The notes: generated by a model not told the origin, from the sequence alone. Positions 11,272 through 35,655 are shown, counted from the stretch's first letter. The stretch is 43,800 nt of DNA from Escherichia coli (GCF_003334315.1 NZ_QOWR01000040.1); one strand, 5' to 3'. Numbers and translations are program-made.

Positions 11272-12936
11272 TTACTTATACGCCGACTGGTGAACACCAA
11301 CCGCGCGACCAGACGGATCGTCCATTTTCTTGAACGCTTCATCCCATTCGATCGCTTTAGCGGAAGAACAAGCGACGGAAGGACCGCCCGGCACGCACTC
11401 AGCGGCGCTCGGAAGCGGGAATAGTTCTTCAAAGATCTCCCGATACAAGTACGCTTCTTTAGAGGTTGGCGTGTTGTACGGGAAGCGGAAGCGGGCAGTT
11501 TCCAGTTGCTGATCAGAAACCTGCTGCGCAGCCACTTCTTTCAGGGTGTCGATCCAACTGTAACCGACGCCATCGGAGAACTGCTCTTTCTGCCGCCAGG
11601 CCACGCTTGCAGGCAGATACGCTTCAAAACATTCACGCAGGATGTGTTTTTCCATTTTGCCGTTACCGCACATTTTATCCTGTGGGTTAATACGCATCGC
11701 CACATCAAGGAATTTTTTGTCGAGGAACGGAACGCGTGCTTCCACGCCCCAGGCTGACATCGCTTTGTTGGCACGCGCGCAGTCATACATATGCAGGGCC
11801 AGCAGTTTACGCACCGTCTCTTCATGCAGTTCTTTGGCATTCGGTGCTTTGTGGAAGTAAAGATAACCGCCGAACACTTCATCAGAACCTTCACCGGACA
11901 GCACCATTTTAATGCCCATCGCCTTGATCTTACGCGACATTAAATACATCGGTGTTGAAGCGCGAATAGTGGTCACATCATAAGTTTCGATGTGGTAAAT
12001 CACGTCGCGGATGGCATCCAGACCTTCCTGTACAGTGAAGTGAATTTCGTGATGCACCGTGCCCAGATGGTTTGCCACTTCCTGGGCTGCTTTCAGATCC
12101 GGTGAACCCGGCAGACCTACAGCAAAGGAGTGTAACTGCGGCCACCAGGCTTCAGAGCGTTCCTGATCTTCCACGCGACGGGCTGCGTATTTCTTGGTGA
12201 TAGCGGAAATAATTGAGGAATCCAGACCACCAGAAAGCAGCACACCGTAAGGCACATCAGACATCAGATGGCTTTTAACTGAATCTTCCAGTGCCTGACG
12301 CAGCTCGTTTTTGTCGGTCACGTTATCTTTCACCGCATCGTAGTCGAACCAGTCGCGATGATAGTAAGAACGGATTTCGCCGTCCTGGCTCCACAAATAG
12401 CTCCCCGCCGGGAACTCTTTAATCGTGCGGCAAACTGGCACCAGCGCTTTCATTTCTGAGGCCACATACAGCTGACCGTGTTCGTCATACCCCATATACA
12501 GTGGGATGATCCCCAGATGGTCGCGACCAATCAGGTAGGCATCTTTTTCGCTGTCGTACAGTGCAAAGGCAAACATGCCCTGCAAGTCGTCGAGAAATTC
12601 CGGCCCTTTTTCCTGATACAGCGCGAGGATCACTTCACAGTCAGACCCGGTCTGGAACTGGTAACGATCGCCATATTCGGCGCGCAATGCCTGGTGGTTG
12701 TAGATTTCACCGTTTACCGCCAGTACGTGGGTTTTTTGTTGGTTGTAGAGAGGTTGCGCCCCCGCGTTAACGTCAACAATTGACAGACGTTCGTGGGCGA
12801 GAATGGCGTTATCGCTGGCATAAATACCGGACCAGTCCGGGCCACGATGACGCATCAGGCGTGACAGCTCGAGGGCTTTCTTACGCAGCTCAACTGCGTC
12901 TGTTTTGATATCGAATACGCCAAAAATTGAACACAT
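11272..12936 (-). CDS. asnB: Asparagine synthetase B, glutamine-hydrolysing (554 aa; six-frame ORF extends to 13017)
   Basis: N-terminus MCSIFGV with catalytic Cys2 of class-II amidotransferases; full length. Confidence 0.9.
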   Translation of the reverse strand: MCSIFGVFDIKTDAVELRKKALELSRLMRHRGPDWSGIYASDNAILAHERLSIVDVNAGAQPLYNQQKTHVLAVNGEIYNHQALRAEYGDRYQFQTGSDCEVILALYQEKGPEFLDDLQGMFAFALYDSEKDAYLIGRDHLGIIPLYMGYDEHGQLYVASEMKALVPVCRTIKEFPAGSYLWSQDGEIRSYYHRDWFDYDAVKDNVTDKNELRQALEDSVKSHLMSDVPYGVLLSGGLDSSIISAITKKYAARRVEDQERSEAWWPQLHSFAVGLPGSPDLKAAQEVANHLGTVHHEIHFTVQEGLDAIRDVIYHIETYDVTTIRASTPMYLMSRKIKAMGIKMVLSGEGSDEVFGGYLYFHKAPNAKELHEETVRKLLALHMYDCARANKAMSAWGVEARVPFLDKKFLDVAMRINPQDKMCGNGKMEKHILRECFEAYLPASVAWRQKEQFSDGVGYSWIDTLKEVAAQQVSDQQLETARFRFPYNTPTSKEAYLYREIFEELFPLPSAAECVPGGPSVACSSAKAIEWDEAFKKMDDPSGRAVGVHQSAYK

Positions 12937-27384: not shown

Positions 27385-29025
27385 ATGGCAATCCACAATC
27401 GTGCAGGCCAACCTGCACAACAGAGTGATTTGATTAACGTCGCCCAACTGGCGGCGCAATATTATGTACTGAAACCAGAAGCAGGGAATGCGGAGCACGC
27501 GGTGAAATTCGGTACTTCCGGTCACCGTGGCAGTGCAGCGCGCCACAGCTTTAACGAGCCGCACATTCTGGCGATCGCTCAGGCAATTGCTGAAGAACGT
27601 GCGAAAAACGGCATCACTGGCCCTTGCTATGTGGGTAAAGATACTCACGCCCTGTCCGAGCCTGCGTTCATTTCCGTACTGGAAGTGCTGGCAGCGAACG
27701 GCGTTGATGTCATTGTGCAGGAAAACAATGGCTTCACTCCAACGCCTGCCGTTTCCAATGCCATCCTGGTTCACAATAAAAAAGGTGGCCCGCTGGCAGA
27801 CGGTATCGTGATTACACCGTCCCATAACCCGCCGGAAGATGGTGGTATCAAGTACAATCCGCCAAATGGTGGCCCGGCTGATACCAACGTCACCAAAGTG
27901 GTGGAAGACAGGGCCAACGCACTGCTGGCCGATGGCCTGAAAGGCGTGAAGCGTATCTCCCTCGACGAAGCGATGGCATCCGGTCATGTGAAAGAGCAGG
28001 ATCTGGTGCAGCCGTTCGTGGAAGGGCTGGCCGATATCGTTGATATGGCGGCGATTCAGAAAGCGGGCCTGACGCTTGGCGTTGATCCGCTGGGCGGTTC
28101 CGGTATCGAATACTGGAAGCGTATTGGCGAGTATTACAACCTCAACCTGACTATCGTTAACGATCAGGTCGATCAAACCTTCCGCTTTATGCACCTTGAT
28201 AAAGACGGCGCGATCCGTATGGACTGCTCCTCCGAGTGTGCGATGGCGGGCCTGCTGGCACTGCGTGATAAGTTCGATCTGGCGTTTGCTAACGACCCGG
28301 ATTATGACCGTCACGGTATCGTCACTCCGGCAGGTTTGATGAATCCGAACCACTACCTGGCGGTGGCGATCAATTACCTGTTCCAGCATCGTCCGCAGTG
28401 GGGCAAAGATGTTGCCGTTGGTAAAACGCTGGTTTCTTCTGCGATGATCGACCGTGTGGTCAATGACTTGGGTCGTAAGCTGGTAGAAGTCCCGGTAGGT
28501 TTCAAATGGTTTGTTGATGGTCTGTTCGACGGCAGCTTCGGCTTTGGCGGCGAAGAGAGCGCAGGGGCTTCCTTCCTGCGTTTCGACGGCACGCCGTGGT
28601 CCACCGACAAAGACGGCATCATCATGTGTCTGCTGGCGGCGGAAATCACCGCTGTCACCGGTAAGAACCCGCAGGAACACTACAACGAACTGGCAAAACG
28701 CTTTGGTGCGCCGAGCTACAACCGTTTGCAGGCAGCTGCGACTTCCGCACAAAAAGCGGCGCTGTCTAAGCTGTCTCCGGAAATGGTGAGCGCCAGCACC
28801 CTGGCAGGTGACCCGATCACCGCGCGCCTGACTGCTGCTCCGGGCAACGGTGCTTCTATTGGCGGTCTGAAAGTGATGACTGACAACGGCTGGTTCGCCG
28901 CGCGTCCGTCAGGCACGGAAGACGCATATAAGATCTACTGCGAAAGCTTCCTCGGTGAAGAACATCGCAAGCAGATCGAGAAAGAAGCGGTTGAGATTGT
29001 TAGCGAAGTTCTGAAAAACGCGTAA
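27385..29025 (+). CDS. pgm: Phosphoglucomutase Pgm (546 aa; six-frame ORF begins at 27334)
   Basis: Phosphoserine loop GTSGHRG and TPSHNP motif; start MAIHNRAGQ. Confidence 0.95.
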
Positions 29026-29040
29026 ACACATTAAATAAGA

Positions 29041-29070
29041 AAAAGGGCGGTCGGAAGATCGCCCTTTTTT
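29041..29070 (+). terminator. Intrinsic terminator after pgm
   Basis: GGGCGG-tcggaaga-TCGCCC hairpin followed by TTTTTT. Confidence 0.7.
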
Positions 29071-29080
29071 ACGTATGACA

Positions 29081-29190
29081 AACACAGAATTGCCTGATGC
29101 GCTACGCTTATCAGGCCTACGAGGATGGTGCAATATATTGAATTTACGCGATTTTGTAGGCCGGATAAGGCGTTCACGCCGCATCCGGCA
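29081..29190. repeat. BIME (REP pair with conserved linker)
   Basis: TGCCTGATGCGCTACGCTTATCAGGCCTAC-linker-GTAGGCCGGATAAGGCGTTCACGCCGCATCCGGCA. Confidence 0.8.
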
Positions 29191-29239
29191 AAAACAACGA
29201 ACACTTTGTCAACAAACTGAGTAGCTCAAGGAAATCCCA

Positions 29240-29734
29240 ATGAAGACCAACAGGAGTCTGGTCGTCATAGTGTCACTAATTACCGCCACATTACTGCTGA
29301 CTGCATGCGCCCAACCTGAACAATCATCATTAGCTGGCGACTGGTTACTGACCCCTAAAGATAAAACCAGAGGATTAACGGGTAGCATTGCGGTAAATAT
29401 TGCACCTTCCCGGTGTAAGACAAATTGCCGTGGTGATAACTTACCTGATAATACCCGCCGCTGGCAGTTGTCAGGCGGGAACGAAAAAGAACTTACTTAT
29501 CTTCATAATATGTCAGCACAAGAAAAGGTCGGTTTAAATCCCGGTTGGCAATGCTACACCTCATTTTTTATGCGGGTTTGCCAGGGCAAGCCCGGCACTC
29601 GACCGATAGTCAATGAGGATTATGTCAGCGAAAGCGGATTTTTTGGCTCGATGATGCATGTCGGGATTATTGAGTTACGACGCTGCCAGTCAGAAAATTG
29701 CCAGCAAGAATTGAAAGCGATAAATACACATTAA
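29240..29734 (+). CDS. ybfP: Putative lipoprotein YbfP (164 aa), function unknown
   Basis: Signal peptide with lipobox LLLTAC; Cys-rich; AT-rich codon usage. Confidence 0.8.
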   Translation: MKTNRSLVVIVSLITATLLLTACAQPEQSSLAGDWLLTPKDKTRGLTGSIAVNIAPSRCKTNCRGDNLPDNTRRWQLSGGNEKELTYLHNMSAQEKVGLNPGWQCYTSFFMRVCQGKPGTRPIVNEDYVSESGFFGSMMHVGIIELRRCQSENCQQELKAINTH

Positions 29735-29740
29735 AATAGT

Positions 29741-29766
29741 GAGTCCGGAAATGAAACCCGGACCTG
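29741..29766. terminator. Hairpin between convergent ybfP and ybfG (no strong T-run)
   Basis: GTCCGG-aaatgaaac-CCGGAC. Confidence 0.35.
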
Positions 29767-29774
29767 AACATGTC

Positions 29775-30425
29775 TTATTGCGTGAATGTTTCTTTCATTT
29801 GATACTGCATTTCCCAGAGTTCAGTAAGCGAAATAACTTTTCTTGTTTTTGCTTCTTCACTTTGTACCCATAAGAAAGGGTAGAACGTGAAGGCTTCCGT
29901 TGCCGATAATTTTATTACGTCTTCTCGCCATTGCTGCCATCGTACATTTTCATAGAAGGTATCTAAATCACCGGATAATGCCCACTGAAGAAACTCAGAA
30001 TATCCAACTTCCAGACTTTCCCAATTCAGCGTATCTGGCGCAAAATAATAAACGCAGCCAGTATCTTCCCCAAGATCGCCACCATTAAGAGCAAAAATTC
30101 CCCCTGCGACATCGTCAGCGATGGGTAAAGCCCGCACGCCTGCGAATTCAGGGCGTTGTGTCCAACTTACTGGATCTCGTGGCAACCGGGGGTGACCAGA
30201 TCCTGCTATGCGTAACCAACCATTATCAATCAGCAGACCTCCGGAGCCATAGACAAGCGCACCCATTGGTGATTTTGTTGTCACCTGTAATTGATAAAGT
30301 GCGGTTTCGGCTAAATCTTTATTAACCGGTAAGAGTTCGGTATGGTTTGTGGCGTCTTTTAACCAGTTCTGGATTATTGGCCAGGCTGAATCTTCAGTAT
30401 TTACTAACTGATTCATTTCACGCAT
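29775..30425 (-). CDS. ybfG: Uncharacterised protein YbfG (216 aa from the ATG with an AGGAG RBS; in-frame ORF extends to 30533, 252 aa)
   Basis: Intact ORF; no recognisable catalytic motif; my recollection is that the K-12 counterpart is split or pseudogenised. Confidence 0.6.
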   Translation of the reverse strand: MREMNQLVNTEDSAWPIIQNWLKDATNHTELLPVNKDLAETALYQLQVTTKSPMGALVYGSGGLLIDNGWLRIAGSGHPRLPRDPVSWTQRPEFAGVRALPIADDVAGGIFALNGGDLGEDTGCVYYFAPDTLNWESLEVGYSEFLQWALSGDLDTFYENVRWQQWREDVIKLSATEAFTFYPFLWVQSEEAKTRKVISLTELWEMQYQMKETFTQ

Positions 30426-30548
30426 TGCTACTTGCTCCTTGTGTGCTACGGTGTCATTTATGATGAGGAATTGTATGGAACATTTTTTAAATATTAAGTT
30501 CCTTATATTTGAATAAAAAATGACTTTATCCATACATTGCCACTTTTT

Positions 30549-30683
30549 TCAAAGCATAAACCGATACCCAATACCGGTTTCAGTAATAAAATGGCGAGGC
30601 CGGGCCGGATCCTGTTCCAGTTTTTGTCGCAGATGCCCCATATAATTACGCAAATAGTTGCTGTGTTCGATCGCGTTTAGACC
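30549..30683 (-). pseudogene. ybfI: KdpE-like response-regulator C-terminal fragment (ybfI-like remnant)
   Basis: ~135 bp roughly 90% identical to kdpE 3' end at 34978-35112; in-frame translation ...IEHSNYLRNYMGHLRQKLEQDPARPRHFITETGIGYRFML* versus KdpE ...VEHSHYLRIYMGHLRQKLEQDPARPRHFITETGIGYRFML*; no N-terminal receiver domain. Confidence 0.8.
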
Positions 30684-30732
30684 CTACATCTGCCGGATGC
30701 GGCATAAATAACGAACTATTTGCCAACAAACA

Positions 30733-30764
30733 GAAAGGGCGATCATTCAATCGCCCTTTTTTAC
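30733..30764. terminator. Hairpin terminator downstream of potE
   Basis: AAAGGGCGAT-cattcaa-TCGCCCTTTTTT. Confidence 0.55.
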
Positions 30765-30773
30765 TTTGTTTTA

Positions 30774-32093
30774 TTAACCGTGTTTATTTTTCAGTTCAAA
30801 GCGTGGTGATACCAGACCATACAGTGTCCAACCAAGGAAGGTCACGATGGAACCGTACAGCATGGCTTCTTCCCCGGATGAGTACAGCGCATAGAAACTG
30901 TACATCGCGCCAACAAAAGCAACAAAGTTTGCAACTTTCGCTTTTGAGGGGGGCACATTAGCGACCTTCTGAATAATGACTAATGCCGCCATTGACAGAA
31001 TATACGGAATGATATTGGTCACCACGGCCAGGTTAACCAGCACGTTGAACTGACTGTTTAGCGACGGGCTAATCGTCATCAGCGCCAACCCGCTCTGGAT
31101 AATCACAATGGTCAACATTCCCTGCACCGGTGCATCCACTTTGGTTACACGGGAGAAAATTTTAGGGAAGTAGCCTTCATCAGATGAAGATTTAAACACC
31201 TGGGCAATGGTGAACTGCCAGCCAAGTAGCGAACCGCAGCAGGACATCACCATCAGCGCCATAATGACTTTACCCACTTCCGGCGTGAACATCTGCGCGA
31301 AGGCCAGACCAAATGGTGCCGTTGAATTTGCCAGCTCCATATTTGGCACAATCCCGGCAATCACGTTGGTGGAGACGATATAAATCACCGCCGCACCTAA
31401 CGTACCGCCGAGTACCGCGATTGGCACATTACGTTCCGGGTTTTCCACTACATCAGTATTTGCACACGCAGACTCCAGACCAAGAAAAGCCCACAGCGTC
31501 ATAGCGATGGAAGAACCTACCGCACTGAAGAACGGTGCATGATGCGGATTCCAGGAATCAACGTACAGCGTCGGGCTAAACCAGAACCAGCCAATAATGC
31601 ACAGACCGACGACCGGAATAATGACCCCCCACACGGTAATGCTACTGATTTGCCCGGTAATGCGCGCACCACCAAAGTTAGCCACGGTACAAATCCACAG
31701 CACCCCGATGGTCGCAAGACCAATCTGCACTGGCGACAAACTCGCGCCGAGCAGTTCGGTGCCGTAACCAACCGCCGAAATAGCAATCGCGACGTTAGCA
31801 ATCAGCAGTGAGACGCCGTAGGTATAGTTCGCCATAAAGTTACCGGATTTACCGAAAGCATACTCGGCATAACCGCCCATACCGCCTGATTTACGGCTGA
31901 ACATACCGCATTTTGCGAATGCCCATGCCAGTGCCATTGAGCCTACGGCTGTCACCAGCCAGGAGATAATTGAGATTGTCCCGACTTCGGCAAGCTTTGT
32001 CGGCAGCATGATGATACCGGAGCCCATCATGTTGACCATCGTCAGTATGGTTAACTGAACGACGCCCATTTTGTTCGATTTAGCCTGACTCAT
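30774..32093 (-). CDS. potE: Putrescine/ornithine antiporter PotE (439 aa)
   Basis: APC-family multi-TM protein; 4-bp overlap with speF stop. Confidence 0.95.
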   Translation of the reverse strand: MSQAKSNKMGVVQLTILTMVNMMGSGIIMLPTKLAEVGTISIISWLVTAVGSMALAWAFAKCGMFSRKSGGMGGYAEYAFGKSGNFMANYTYGVSLLIANVAIAISAVGYGTELLGASLSPVQIGLATIGVLWICTVANFGGARITGQISSITVWGVIIPVVGLCIIGWFWFSPTLYVDSWNPHHAPFFSAVGSSIAMTLWAFLGLESACANTDVVENPERNVPIAVLGGTLGAAVIYIVSTNVIAGIVPNMELANSTAPFGLAFAQMFTPEVGKVIMALMVMSCCGSLLGWQFTIAQVFKSSSDEGYFPKIFSRVTKVDAPVQGMLTIVIIQSGLALMTISPSLNSQFNVLVNLAVVTNIIPYILSMAALVIIQKVANVPPSKAKVANFVAFVGAMYSFYALYSSGEEAMLYGSIVTFLGWTLYGLVSPRFELKNKHG

Positions 32094-34288
32094 AATTTTT
32101 CCCCTTTCAACAGGGTGCTTTGCGCATCACGAGGCTTGATGACATAGCACCAAACTTGCTTACGACCATCATGTTCTTCGATATAGACACCCTGCAGCTC
32201 CGGTGCAAAACCTGGCAGCAGGTTGATCCCTTCTTCCAGAGCGCTGAAGTAACGCAGAACAGCACCACCCCAGATTTCACCCGGAACAACACACAGCACA
32301 CCCGGAGGATAAGGAAGCGCACCTTCGGCAGCGATACGGCCTTCTGCATCCGGCAGACGAACCAGTTCCACTTCACCGCGTAAATAGGCGTAGTTGGCTT
32401 CTTGCGGATTCATGCTGACGCGTGGGAAGTGCTCCTTACGGAACATCTCTTTTTGCAGTTGTTTCACGTTGTGGCGGGCATACAAATCATGCATTTCCTG
32501 ACACAACTGACGCAGGGTATAACCGGCGTAGCGCTCTTCATGCTGTTTGTAGATGGAAGGTAGCACTTCTGCTAATGGCGCGTCGGACTCAAGCAGTTTT
32601 TCGAAGCGTACCAGCAGGGCAACAAGTTGCTGAAGTTTGGCCATATCTTCTGCCGGAGTCAGCAGGAAGAGGATGGAGTTAAGATCGCATTTTTCCGGCA
32701 CTACGCCATTTTCGCGTAGGAAGTTAGCAAGAATCGTCGCGGGTACACCGAACGCTTCATATTCGCCGTTACGTGCATCAATACCTGGGGTTGTCAGCAA
32801 CAGTTTGCATGGATCGACAAAGTATTGATTCTCTGCATAGCCTTCAAAAGAATGCCAGTGTTCCCCTGGTACAAACTGGAAGAAGCGCAGATCAACCGCA
32901 ATTTGCGCTGTTTCATACGACTGCCAGGGTTTACCATCCACCAGTTCAGGTACGAACGGACGAATATGCTGACAGTTATCGAGGATCAGTTTGCGGGCAT
33001 TAATGCCATTTACCACACAATCCATCCACATATTACGACCGCTGACACCTTCATGCATTTTGGCGTTGATATCCAGTGCGGCAAACAGCGGATAGAACGG
33101 GCTGGTGGAGGCGTGCATCATAAAGGCGTTGTTCATGCGTTTGTGCGGTACATAACGCTGTTGCCCTTTGATGTGGCTGTCTTTTTTATGAATTTGTGAA
33201 GTCTGAGAAAAACCAGCCTGTTGTTTATGCACAGATTGCGTAACCAGAATACCCGGATCGTTCTCATTAAGATCCAGCAACAGCGGCGAACAGTCCGCCA
33301 TCATCGGAATAAACTGTTCATAGCCGACCCATGCTGAGTCAAACAGGATGTAGTCACACAGATGACCAATTTTATCCACCACCTGGCGGGCGTTATAAAT
33401 CGTACCGTCGTAGGTGCCTAACTGAATCACAGCGAGGCGGAAAGGACGAGCCTCTTTTGCCCGCTGCGGTGCGACTTCCGCGATCAGCTCACGCAGGTAA
33501 CTTTCTTCAAAACAGTGCGCATCAATGCCACCGATAAAGCCATACGGGTTACGTGCCGTTTCCAGATAAACCGGTGTTGCACCAGCCTGTAGCAACGCTC
33601 CGTGGTGGTTAGATTTGTGGTTATTGCGGTCAAACAGCACCAGATCACCCGGTGTTAGCAGGGCGTTTAAAACCACTTTGTTAGAAAATGAAGTGCCATT
33701 TAAAACGAAGTAGGTTTTATCGGCATTAAACACTTTTGCCGCATGTTGCTGTGCAATGCATGGCGCGCCTTCGTGAATCAGCAGATCGCCCATCGCTACG
33801 TCGGCGTTGCACAAGTCGGCACGGAACAGCGCCTCACCAAAGTATTCCACAAACTGATTCCCCGCCGGATGGCGACGGAAAAATTCGCCGCCCTGATGAC
33901 CAGGGCAATCAAACGCGCTGTTACCTTGATTGACATAATCGACCAGTGCGCGGAAGAAAGGTGGGCGCAGTTGAGTTTCATAATGGCTGGCAGCGGTTTC
34001 TAACTGGCGACCATAAAATTCTTTACGTGCTTCGCTAGGTTCGAAGACACCAGAAATACGTGAAAGATATTCTGCTGGTATACGTTCTTCATTTTCCGTT
34101 GCAATAAAAACAGGAATGCCATAGCCAGTAGCGTCTATTTCATCGAGTTTTCCACGTTCCACATCATTGACCGATAAAATAATGGCGGCAACGTCAATAT
34201 AATTACTTTCGTCAATATTCACGCATGTACGATGAGTGGAAAAACAATCCGGGCAAGAACGACTAACGGCAATTTTTAATTCTGACAT
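32090..34288 (-). CDS. speF: Inducible ornithine decarboxylase SpeF (732 aa; ORF could start 3 codons upstream at 34297)
   Basis: Large PLP-dependent Orn/Lys/Arg decarboxylase fold; speF-potE operon. Confidence 0.9.
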   Translation of the reverse strand: MSELKIAVSRSCPDCFSTHRTCVNIDESNYIDVAAIILSVNDVERGKLDEIDATGYGIPVFIATENEERIPAEYLSRISGVFEPSEARKEFYGRQLETAASHYETQLRPPFFRALVDYVNQGNSAFDCPGHQGGEFFRRHPAGNQFVEYFGEALFRADLCNADVAMGDLLIHEGAPCIAQQHAAKVFNADKTYFVLNGTSFSNKVVLNALLTPGDLVLFDRNNHKSNHHGALLQAGATPVYLETARNPYGFIGGIDAHCFEESYLRELIAEVAPQRAKEARPFRLAVIQLGTYDGTIYNARQVVDKIGHLCDYILFDSAWVGYEQFIPMMADCSPLLLDLNENDPGILVTQSVHKQQAGFSQTSQIHKKDSHIKGQQRYVPHKRMNNAFMMHASTSPFYPLFAALDINAKMHEGVSGRNMWMDCVVNGINARKLILDNCQHIRPFVPELVDGKPWQSYETAQIAVDLRFFQFVPGEHWHSFEGYAENQYFVDPCKLLLTTPGIDARNGEYEAFGVPATILANFLRENGVVPEKCDLNSILFLLTPAEDMAKLQQLVALLVRFEKLLESDAPLAEVLPSIYKQHEERYAGYTLRQLCQEMHDLYARHNVKQLQKEMFRKEHFPRVSMNPQEANYAYLRGEVELVRLPDAEGRIAAEGALPYPPGVLCVVPGEIWGGAVLRYFSALEEGINLLPGFAPELQGVYIEEHDGRKQVWCYVIKPRDAQSTLLKGEKL

Positions 34289-34598
34289 TTTGTTCATCTC
34301 TTTATTTCAGGTAATAGCAGGTCCTCAATTTCTCAAAGGAGAAATCGATCACGCCGGAAAAAAAGCAAAGCTCCACCGCTGATAAATAAATCAGTAGTTT
34401 GCTTTTTGCAGATGCAATAACCCAGACCAGCCCGGTAACTGGCTATACTCGTCATCCTTCAAGTTGCATATGCTGCGACTCGAATTATTTAGAGTTTAAA
34501 AGGGTTAGCAGTATATGAGCACCGAGGAATACAGGTATTAACCTGTAATGCTTAAAGTCAGGGAGACCTGTACGCTGGGGTGCCCTTTAGTCAGAAGA

Positions 34599-34703
34599 CT
34601 AGCGGGCATTAAAGAAATGAAAGTCAAAACTATTACGATGGGCAAACTTCATGATATGGGGTGTCCGCCTTATATGAGGCATTAAGCGGTTATTATTTTC
34701 CAT
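34599..34703 (-). CDS. speFL: speFL, 34-codon ornithine-sensing ribosome-arrest leader peptide
   Basis: Minus-strand translation MENNNRLMPHIRRTPHIMKFAHRNSFDFHFFNAR*, about 300 nt upstream of speF; matches the described SpeFL apart from a few residues that may be strain variation or imperfect recall. Confidence 0.75.
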   Translation of the reverse strand: MENNNRLMPHIRRTPHIMKFAHRNSFDFHFFNAR

Positions 34704-34977
34704 TTACCTTTACCTCTTGCTGTGTCAGTTGAAGGTAGAGTTATTCTATCCATGAAATGGCTATAATCTGTGAAGAAGATCAACAAAAAACGATCATACC
34801 CCAGATAATAAATCATTAATTATGAATAGCGCCATATTAGACGCTGTTTTGTTATTTAAATGTTGTAATTTTGTGTTTTATATTTGCGTTAAGAAATTAA
34901 ACCTGCCAAATAATAATATTTGGTGCAGGTTTAATAATAAATTAATCACTATTTAAGCGAATTTATTGAATAAAAAT

Positions 34978-35655
34978 TCAAAGCATAAACCGATAGCCAA
35001 TACCGGTTTCAGTAATGAAATGGCGTGGGCGGGCGGGATCCTGTTCCAGTTTTTGTCGCAGATGTCCCATATAAATACGCAAATAGTGACTGTGTTCGAC
35101 CGCGTTTGGCCCCCACACCTGGTTAAGGAGCTGGCGCTGGGTGAGTACTTTTCCGGCATTGTTGAGCAGCACCGCCAGCAGGCGGAACTCAATTGGTGTG
35201 AGATGCACCTCTTCCTCACCCCGGTGAATCACGCGGGCGGCTAAATCGACGGTAACATCGGAAAATTTCACCAGCGGATCGGGTGCGGTGGTGGCAGAGT
35301 GGCGGCGTAATGCGACGCGCAGACGGGCCTGCAATTCGCCAATGCCAAACGGCTTACTCAGATAATCATCCGCTCCGGCATCCAGCGCGGCGATTTTGTC
35401 GCTCTCTTCGCTGCGTGCGGAAAGCACAATCACCGGCACCGCGCTCCACTGGCGCAGGTCGCGGATAAACTCAATCCCATCACCATCGGGCAGGCCGAGA
35501 TCGAGAATAATCAAATCTGGCTTACGGGTAGCCGCTTCCAGCAAGCCGCGTTGCAGCGTTTCGGCCTCATAGACGCGCATCCCGTCGCCCTCCAGCGCCG
35601 TGCGCAGAAAGCGACGAATAGCCTGTTCATCTTCAACAATCAGAACGTTTGTCAC
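34978..35655 (-). CDS. kdpE: Two-component response regulator KdpE (225 aa)
   Basis: Receiver domain ([18 protein letters not shown]-box) plus OmpR-type winged helix; 4-bp overlap with kdpD stop. Confidence 0.95.
   Translation of the reverse strand: MTNVLIVEDEQAIRRFLRTALEGDGMRVYEAETLQRGLLEAATRKPDLIILDLGLPDGDGIEFIRDLRQWSAVPVIVLSARSEESDKIAALDAGADDYLSKPFGIGELQARLRVALRRHSATTAPDPLVKFSDVTVDLAARVIHRGEEEVHLTPIEFRLLAVLLNNAGKVLTQRQLLNQVWGPNAVEHSHYLRIYMGHLRQKLEQDPARPRHFITETGIGYRFML

Follow-up and report, generated by a model that had tools for sequence, protein, structure and literature searches.

A dispensable, horizontally acquired islet between pgm and potE of Escherichia coli with a probable orphan immunity gene, ybfG, in the sigma-E regulon and a lipoprotein gene, ybfP

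How did ybfP and ybfG come to lie between pgm and potE on some Escherichia coli chromosomes, and what might their products do? We addressed these questions in a 43.8-kb stretch of E. coli DNA (the window), which represents the seqA-pgm-...-potE-speF-kdpE region and is 100% identical to strain CP53 over positions 29000–30800. A sequence-only reading of the window had described the two genes as a convergent pair, more AT-rich than their neighbors, within an old, horizontally acquired islet that is bounded by a BIME on the left and a kdpE remnant on the right, and this description has held up. The first gene, ybfP, is an open reading frame at 29240–29734 on the + strand that encodes a 164-aa lipoprotein precursor, and the second, ybfG, occupies 29775–30425 on the − strand (PGAP start) and encodes a 216-aa DUF2625 protein. 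The genes converge on a 40-nt interval in which a terminator scan found a hairpin on the − strand (29742–29764), terminator-like for ybfG, with an 8-pair stem that includes 5 GC pairs.

Both genes are visibly AT-rich, with a GC content of 0.457 for ybfP and 0.441 for ybfG (GC3 0.364), compared with 0.555 for pgm (GC3 0.609), 0.509 for potE and 0.515 for the window as a whole. The 1,294-nt stretch from ybfP through ybfG falls within the lowest 2.7% in GC among same-length windows of the 43.8 kb, and the composition of the islet is foreign.

Measured against the islet-free type of chromosome, the islet corresponds to 29073–30764 (1,692 bp, GC 0.44), and it is flanked by the two copies of a 36-nt direct repeat, D2, which a repeat search aligned at 78% identity. 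The left copy (29037–29072, + strand) is the pgm terminator hairpin, which by itself separates pgm from potE on islet-free chromosomes, and the right copy, D2′ (30729–30764, − strand; repeat search and terminator scan), is the potE terminator hairpin. At the left boundary lies a BIME made of two inverted REP elements (approximately 29092–29190), recognized from the sequence and from blast matches, of which there are more than 200,000 across E. coli genomes at 85–87% identity. This BIME also has matches to the Rfam families naRNA4 (REP-derived) and ES036 that are sub-threshold, as all Rfam matches in the islet region lie under the gathering thresholds. A second direct repeat, of 43 nt, comprises the REP end and sequence upstream of ybfP (D1, 29178–29220, + strand) and recurs at 81% identity on the right side (D1′, 30692–30734, + strand). 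The right boundary is kdpE′ (30549–30692, − strand; blastn and annotation), a remnant that corresponds to the final 144 nt of kdpE, is ~90% identical to that gene and is interrupted in frame by a stop codon; it is a partial winged-helix pseudogene in the PGAP annotation and is called ybfI in K-12. No integrase, transposase or tRNA attachment site was found in the islet, whose boundaries are marked by nothing more than the BIME and the repeats of 36 and 43 nt.

Across a population sample of 5,426 complete E. coli genomes, the locus occurs in three states: pgm is joined directly to potE in ~59%, the islet is present in 34%, and ~5% have the order pgm-ybfP-kdpE. Counted by gene, ybfP was found in 2,113 of these genomes, ybfG in 1,853, the whole islet in 1,851 and potE in 5,046, from which we derive ~3,190 islet-free and ~260 ybfP-only genomes. 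Islet carriers include the window strain, K-12 and BL21. In O157:H7, ATCC 25922 and AR_0015, pgm leads to potE via one 56-bp terminator spacer, and in NY1601 and MINF_7C the order is pgm-ybfP-BIME-kdpE, with ybfG, potE and speF missing. In Salmonella, the order is probably pgm-potE-speF-kdpE. In all, potE is missing from about 7% of the E. coli genomes, and speF was also absent from both of the two such genomes examined, so that the three-state structural polymorphism documented here between pgm and kdpE includes a potE/speF loss that matters for polyamine and acid-stress physiology.

The stretch is a dispensable islet, and its horizontal acquisition is supported by the polymorphism of the site, which is occupied in 34–39% of genomes, together with a deviant GC content (0.44 versus 0.515 in the window). 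The islet is also old, because dS between its alleles (~0.08 between two ybfG allele groups, 0.13–0.17 for ybfP) is comparable to that of pgm (0.05–0.11) and because kdpE′ has diverged by ~10%. By blastn, kdpE′ is 88–91% identical to every kdpE allele tested; a closer relationship to the kdpE of ybfP-kdpE genomes was considered and rejected, as kdpE′ is equally distant from all alleles tested.

In the history that we favor, a 1.7-kb accessory islet with two unrelated cargo genes would have been inserted at the shared pgm/potE terminator. Since a kdpE remnant lies beside the islet, the ybfP-ybfG module would formerly have adjoined kdpE, and given that former junction, at which ybfP still stands in ~5% of genomes, the present arrangement would be a recombinant, formed between a 'pgm-ybfP-(ybfG)-kdpE' and a 'pgm-potE-speF-kdpE' chromosome. 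We infer both this recombinant origin and the order of the recombination events.

Alternatively, the islet arrangement could be ancestral, in which case a deletion from one terminator copy to the other would have given the islet-free type, and one from kdpE′ to kdpE the ybfP-kdpE type, with no insertion or recombinant join. The two terminators are well suited to such an event, since D2 and D2′ have in common a 15-nt exact core, ATCGCCCTTTTTTAC, at which a deletion would leave exactly the islet-free junction, and the presence of the islet on diverse pgm backgrounds, with two old ybfG allele groups, also speaks for ancestry. However, outside E. coli a search of 5.8 billion proteins returned no YbfG homologue above 57% identity and no YbfP homologue above 37%, so ybfP and ybfG look like within-species gains. 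Moreover, the 3′ end of kdpE in ybfP-kdpE genomes is no nearer to kdpE′ than are other alleles, so the ybfP-kdpE type would not have come from recombination between kdpE′ and kdpE, and an ancestral 144-nt duplicate of kdpE would itself still require an explanation. We regard an ancestral islet as less probable than an acquired, recombinant one.

What the islet encodes depends in part on where ybfG starts, for which the sequence-only reading had given a size of 216–252 aa. The longest ybfG ORF (29775–30533, − strand) does amount to 252 aa, and the PGAP start reduces it to 29775–30425 and 216 aa. An AAGGAG sequence stands 9 nt before the ATG at 30425, and DUF2625 family alignments start at MR.L.ELIN, which is the 216-aa start. 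The 252-aa start (ATG at 30533) was rejected, as both the SD sequence and a sigma-E motif would lie inside the extension and the family begins at the 216-aa position; the shorter size can be kept, and the longer one is probably an over-extension. We take 30426–30533 (− strand) as the noncoding 5′ leader and promoter region of ybfG on the basis of the SD sequence, the family start, the sigma-E motif and a GC content of 0.30.

The sigma-E-type promoter motif in this region (30475–30502, − strand; motif scan and published RACE) consists of GGAACTT, a 16-nt spacer and TCCAT, the latter being the −10 element, for which a TCAAA-like sequence is expected. The pattern GGAACTT-N15-17-TC has its sole window match here (30502–30478, − strand), inside the 252-aa extension, where 0.91 matches are expected by chance and the motif count alone is not significant. 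In K-12, the ybfG promoter is among 28 sigma-E promoters mapped by 5′ RACE (Rhodius et al., PMC1312014), and ybfG is 25-fold up on sigma-E induction (Bury-Mone et al., PMC2731931). Taken together, the motif in the window and the K-12 transcription literature place ybfG in the sigma-E regulon. Transcription from a sigma-E promoter of its own would let the level of YbfG rise under envelope stress, and it is in this sense that we infer the logic of sigma-E control.

Neither protein had shown an assignable motif in the sequence-only reading. For YbfP this remains the case, as no Pfam or NCBIfam family was found for it, but YbfG clearly belongs to Pfam DUF2625 (PF10946; E 3.2e-87, model positions 1–206 of 207) and scores 511 bits against NCBIfam PRK11408.1-1, for which the cutoff is 278; the NCBIfam models are named 'hypothetical protein' only. 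The AlphaFold model of YbfG is confident, and the structures closest to it are the type VI secretion (T6SS) immunity proteins Tdi1 and Atu4351, followed by SUKH proteins, from which we predict that YbfG has an alpha+beta SUKH fold. A Foldseek search against AFDB50 returned DUF2625 proteins only, PADLOC gave no match for YbfG or YbfP, and neither 'DUF2625' nor 'PF10946' appears in the literature searched.

By sequence, YbfG reaches E 0.16–0.22 against the SMI1_KNR4 profile and has no significant match to SUKH or Tdi1 profiles, and neither its sequence nor its family profile found anything useful in the PDB, observations that weigh against an immunity function. An hhalign comparison of the DUF2625 profile with a Rahnella SMI1/KNR4 immunity protein was likewise not significant. 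YbfG is 99% identical within E. coli, after which identity drops to at most 57%, with homologues in Pantoea, Kosakonia, Erwinia, Citrobacter, Dickeya, Yersinia, many Bacteroidota, Burkholderia and Clostridium. Between phyla, DUF2625 proteins keep 44–55% identity and invariant polar residues, a conservation that is unusual for an immunity protein and also counts against such a function.

Genes next to DUF2625 were surveyed from the side of the family and from the side of the toxin. The first census took in 79 species-representative loci with 148 immediate neighbor genes, among which Pfam revealed no conserved partner. Gene contexts in Citrobacter, Yersinia, Flavobacterium, Burkholderia and Pantoea are heterogeneous. 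Only one of the 79 loci has an adjacent toxin gene, namely that of Clostridium homopropionicum, in which a 1,974-aa RHS protein with a C-terminal DNase_NucA_NucB domain ends 30 nt upstream of a DUF2625 gene whose product is 44% identical to YbfG. The rarity of toxin adjacency, and the absence of a common partner among the 148 neighbors, speak against immunity; most DUF2625 proteins thus stand alone, and their role could be a different one.

The toxin-side search was seeded with the DNase tip of the C. homopropionicum protein. It led to an orphan 139-aa NucA/NucB tip in gut and oral metagenomes that has DUF2625 18 nt downstream and belongs to an array in which toxin and immunity genes alternate (Tox-ART-HYD1/DUF6881, NucA/NucB/DUF2625, GH-E/Imm33, PT-TG, RHS). 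A metagenome scan with the tip alignment then gave 80 loci, including 75 tips with at least 500 nt of downstream sequence, and a co-directional DUF2625 gene starts within ~130 nt downstream of 54 of these 75. When tips were clustered at 80% identity, DUF2625 was directly downstream in 18 of 34 clusters, and because the starting tip was one whose pairing with DUF2625 had already been established, this 53% applies to that clade only. Half of the longest toxin ORFs (5 of 10) have RHS core or YD-repeat matches. A NucA/NucB and DUF2625 pair is also carried on Clostridium butyricum megaplasmids (pCBU1).

Where the downstream gene is not DUF2625, other candidate partners take the position. The 22 downstream ORFs that we scanned comprise the Rahnella SMI1/KNR4 gene and those behind the 21 metagenomic tips that lack DUF2625, and 8 of the 22 match ComJ. 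The others, ~210 aa in length, match SMI1_KNR4, DUF2625 and T6SS_Tdi1_C together (E 1e-4 to 5e-2), and these joint matches provide a sequence-level bridge from DUF2625 to SUKH/Tdi1. In Rahnella, the SMI1/KNR4 gene follows a VENN-NucA/NucB tip in a CDI orphan array, the tip DNA having no match in E. coli genomes, and in Burkholderia multivorans an RHS-NucA/NucB gene is followed by comJ. The immunity partners that Zhang et al. (2012, PMC3482391) give for Tox-NucA, in the part of their polymorphic-toxin survey available to us, are Imm36, Imm-SUKH and Imm-NTF2, and the searched text of that survey makes no mention of DUF2625 or YbfG. In summary of both surveys, DUF2625 genes stand next to toxin genes in several independent lineages, and the fold together with this repeated, independent adjacency indicates that the family is a SUKH/Tdi1-type immunity protein for NucA/NucB DNase domains.

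No toxin gene adjoins ybfG in the window, where nothing lies upstream but 123 bp of AT-rich promoter DNA and the remnant of kdpE, and ybfG is therefore an orphan. In the mechanism that we propose, YbfG, with its SUKH/Tdi1-type fold, would act in the cytoplasm by binding and neutralizing NucA/NucB DNase domains that competitors inject, these domains being the tips that Rhs proteins and other polymorphic toxins of rival bacteria carry. We consider it fairly probable that the islet combines an orphan NucA/NucB-DNase immunity gene, ybfG, which sigma-E induces, with the lipoprotein gene ybfP, and that E. coli YbfG would accordingly bind such a DNase and protect the cell. It counts against this proposal that no NucA/NucB-tipped toxin is known to attack E. 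coli.

A broader proposal, which we offer tentatively and with some doubt, is that the sigma-E response directly switches on YbfG as a stand-alone antidote to injected DNases, and that DUF2625 is a widespread orphan shield against NucA/NucB nucleases. If this were true, YbfG would be an inducible, non-cognate 'innate' arm of immunity against Rhs, T6SS or CDI attack, and the same logic would extend to DUF2625 in hundreds of species in which it has no toxin partner. A testable function is thereby proposed for a y-gene of E. coli and for a DUF that Pfam records in many bacterial phyla, and the idea that the sigma-E response to envelope stress is linked to defence against toxins of other bacteria becomes open to test. 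The three-state population structure, the scar analysis and the functional assignment of DUF2625/YbfG are new here; the gene annotations and the pseudogene status of K-12 ybfG were already known.

Alternatively, YbfG might be a housekeeping or regulatory protein of the sigma-E stress regulon, a SUKH-type adaptor like Syd or Smi1/Knr4, with the toxin-linked DUF2625 genes as a specialised offshoot of the family. We regard this as unlikely, because the strongest structural matches of YbfG are bona fide immunity proteins and because the toxin-linked copy of C. homopropionicum, at its 44% identity to YbfG, falls within the stand-alone range and is not a distant offshoot. A housekeeping role also fits poorly with a gene that 66% of E. 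coli genomes and the sister species lack, and orphan immunity genes are described as common in the SUKH superfamily in the part of the survey available to us (PMC3482391). An orphan immunity protein thus remains our preferred reading of YbfG.

This reading concerns an intact gene, and ybfG is intact in the window, with a full ORF and TGG at codon 70, as had been noted from the sequence. The accompanying statement that the K-12 counterpart is split or pseudogenised proved correct: ybfG of K-12 MG1655 is annotated as a pseudogene, and its translation differs from that of the window by W70* (TGG->TAG, window position 30217), G109V and K194R. Alleles were counted with 55-mers centered on codon 70, in which every 28-nt megablast word spans the variant base. 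TGG was found in 1,284 genomes and TAG in 365, and nearly all of 40 sampled rows with TAG were K-12 derivatives (MG1655, BW25113, MC4100, C600, JM109). Intact ybfG is the natural state and K-12 the exception, and K-12 is a poor model for ybfG because of this lineage-specific stop codon.

Truncated copies of ybfG occur in ~75 genomes, and several truncated protein clusters are found too. The loss of ybfG from K-12 and from some natural isolates is a further observation that weighs against immunity, as is the use of ybfG knock-outs as neutral controls in K-12, a strain in which the gene is a pseudogene to begin with. 'Divergent' forms of YbfG (88%) and YbfP (64%) were considered as belonging to other species, an assignment that was rejected when they turned out to be E. 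coli loci (pgm ~98%) that carry indels, a single gap in the case of ybfG and three gaps in that of ybfP. Values of dN/dS are 0.27 for ybfG and 0.18–0.21 for ybfP, versus 0.01–0.04 for pgm, which suggests that both islet genes are under constraint, if weakly. That the islet is decaying junk, with ybfG and ybfP as functionless remnants and the intact frame incidental, is quite improbable: the W70* and G109V changes of K-12, the truncated copies, the absence of both genes from 61–66% of genomes and the lack of any phenotype in the literature searched would fit such decay, but these dN/dS values arise between alleles with dS of 0.08–0.17, YbfG keeps all 24 of 24 family-invariant residues, the stop allele is essentially limited to laboratory K-12, and ybfG has a dedicated promoter that was mapped experimentally.

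The product of the other cargo gene had been called a small, Cys-rich lipoprotein, and the details agree. The signal peptide of YbfP, MKTNRSLVVIVSLITATLLL-TAC, ends in the lipobox LTAC, with Cys23 and an Ala at +2, and K-12 annotation also names the protein lipoprotein YbfP; Pfam LPAM_1 gives E 7.7 only. From this signal peptide with its L-x-x-C lipobox, YbfP is predicted to be a lipoprotein. The mature protein has six further Cys, among which C105, C114 and C154 do not vary. Remote homologues share a C-x4-C pair close to the C-terminus, and one of them (P0151) retains the lipobox. Relatives are few: YbfP has 27 matches in 5.8 billion proteins and 15 in 1.84 billion representatives, and three of its matches are remote relatives at 22–37% identity. 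The remote homologues in other gammaproteobacteria are encoded between dus and moeB, a context that is uninformative.

An AlphaFold2 model of YbfP built on 8 sequences has a pLDDT of 77, or ~85 for the mature part, and contains eight strands and a C-terminal helix, according to which YbfP is predicted to be a small eight-stranded beta-barrel. YbfP is probably a small, disulfide-rich lipoprotein of the outer membrane, and our best guess, which we hold with low confidence, is that it could act as a periplasmic binding or inhibitor protein. The known proteins with which we compare it are small periplasmic beta-barrel inhibitor lipoproteins, namely MliC/PliC lysozyme inhibitors and lipocalin-like proteins.

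For YbfG, the nearest known system is that of Tdi1 and Atu4351 (T6SS_Tdi1_C, formerly DUF1851), which are antidotes to Ntox15 Tde DNase effectors. YbfG has 11–14% identity to them and no detectable sequence similarity, the toxin domain that partners DUF2625 is NucA/NucB (PF14040) and not Ntox15, and E. coli ybfG, unlike those antidotes, has no T6SS or toxin gene nearby. ComJ/Nin, the inhibitor of the Bacillus DNA-entry nuclease NucA, would be a functional analogue of DUF2625 from an unrelated family and with an unrelated fold; it shares with DUF2625 the position behind NucA/NucB tips, although it does not occur in the window. Finally, the Imm-SUKH proteins of the SMI1/KNR4 superfamily, such as B. 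subtilis YobK and RhsPI (Zhang et al. 2011, 2012), differ from DUF2625 in that the latter, still labelled as a family of unknown function, is a separate Pfam family and is far more conserved than typical SUKH immunity proteins.

At the right-hand side of the islet, the potE (30774-32093) and speF (32090-34288) genes of the window were compared with their counterparts in other Escherichia coli strains. Comparing the speF of the window with that of K-12 gives 30 nonsynonymous changes, 39 synonymous ones and a dN/dS of 0.22; against the O157:H7 speF, the window copy shows only 8.5 nonsynonymous changes. At other E. coli loci (L093), we measured a dS of ∼0.24 for both potE and speF, compared to ∼0.07 for pgm. 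The potE-speF segment has the appearance of a mosaic assembled from old alleles; the speF of K-12 may be atypical.

The sole other stretch in the window that matches the AT-richness of the islet lies at 33557-35440, where it spans the 5′-end of speF, the speFL leader and the spacer separating them from kdpE. A 44-amino acid open reading frame overlaps the speFL leader region at about 34,6xx-34,8xx (11683-11817 in the compared locus L001). The PGAP label for it is 'TonB-dependent receptor' in strain CP53; other strains have it as 'hypothetical protein'. We regard it as a likely fragment or artefact of annotation.

Across 5,426 complete E. coli genomes, potE is absent from 380 (for example at loci L002, L003 and L097), and in both annotated potE-less genomes, NY1601 and MINF_7C, speF is absent as well. 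Locus L097 has the same pgm-ybfP-kdpE layout as these two strains, and ybfP adjoins kdpE in ∼260 of the 380, leaving a remainder of ∼120. Copies of pgm are also found on plasmids, namely the 300-kb E. coli plasmid NZ_LR890350.1 and nine other plasmid places, with ∼87% identity between plasmid and chromosomal pgm.

In K-12 (locus L004, 5948-6598), ybfG carries a G109V substitution in addition to its stop codon. The glycine at this position is invariant across 51 family members, and its loss in K-12 fits decay that followed, or accompanied, inactivation. A YbfG protein 100% identical to that of E. coli is encoded on a 1.9-kb contig from a 'Collinsella sp.' MAG (JAIJJM010000630.1). This contig almost certainly comes from contaminating E. 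coli DNA that was binned with an actinobacterial MAG.

Within the BIME at the left boundary of the islet, Rfam matches to two REP-derived sRNAs were both below threshold: naRNA4 at 29159-29223 scored 41.5 bits against a gathering threshold of 59.5, and ES036 at 29113-29155 scored 32.6 bits against a threshold of 37.6.

Beyond E. coli ybfG, some stand-alone DUF2625 genes sit within runs of small co-directional genes, as in Flavobacterium (L099) and Citrobacter (L085). Examples of such runs include DUF6620-DUF2625-DUF2314-...-SUFU and DUF596-...-DUF2625, and in this arrangement they resemble heterogeneous poly-immunity loci.
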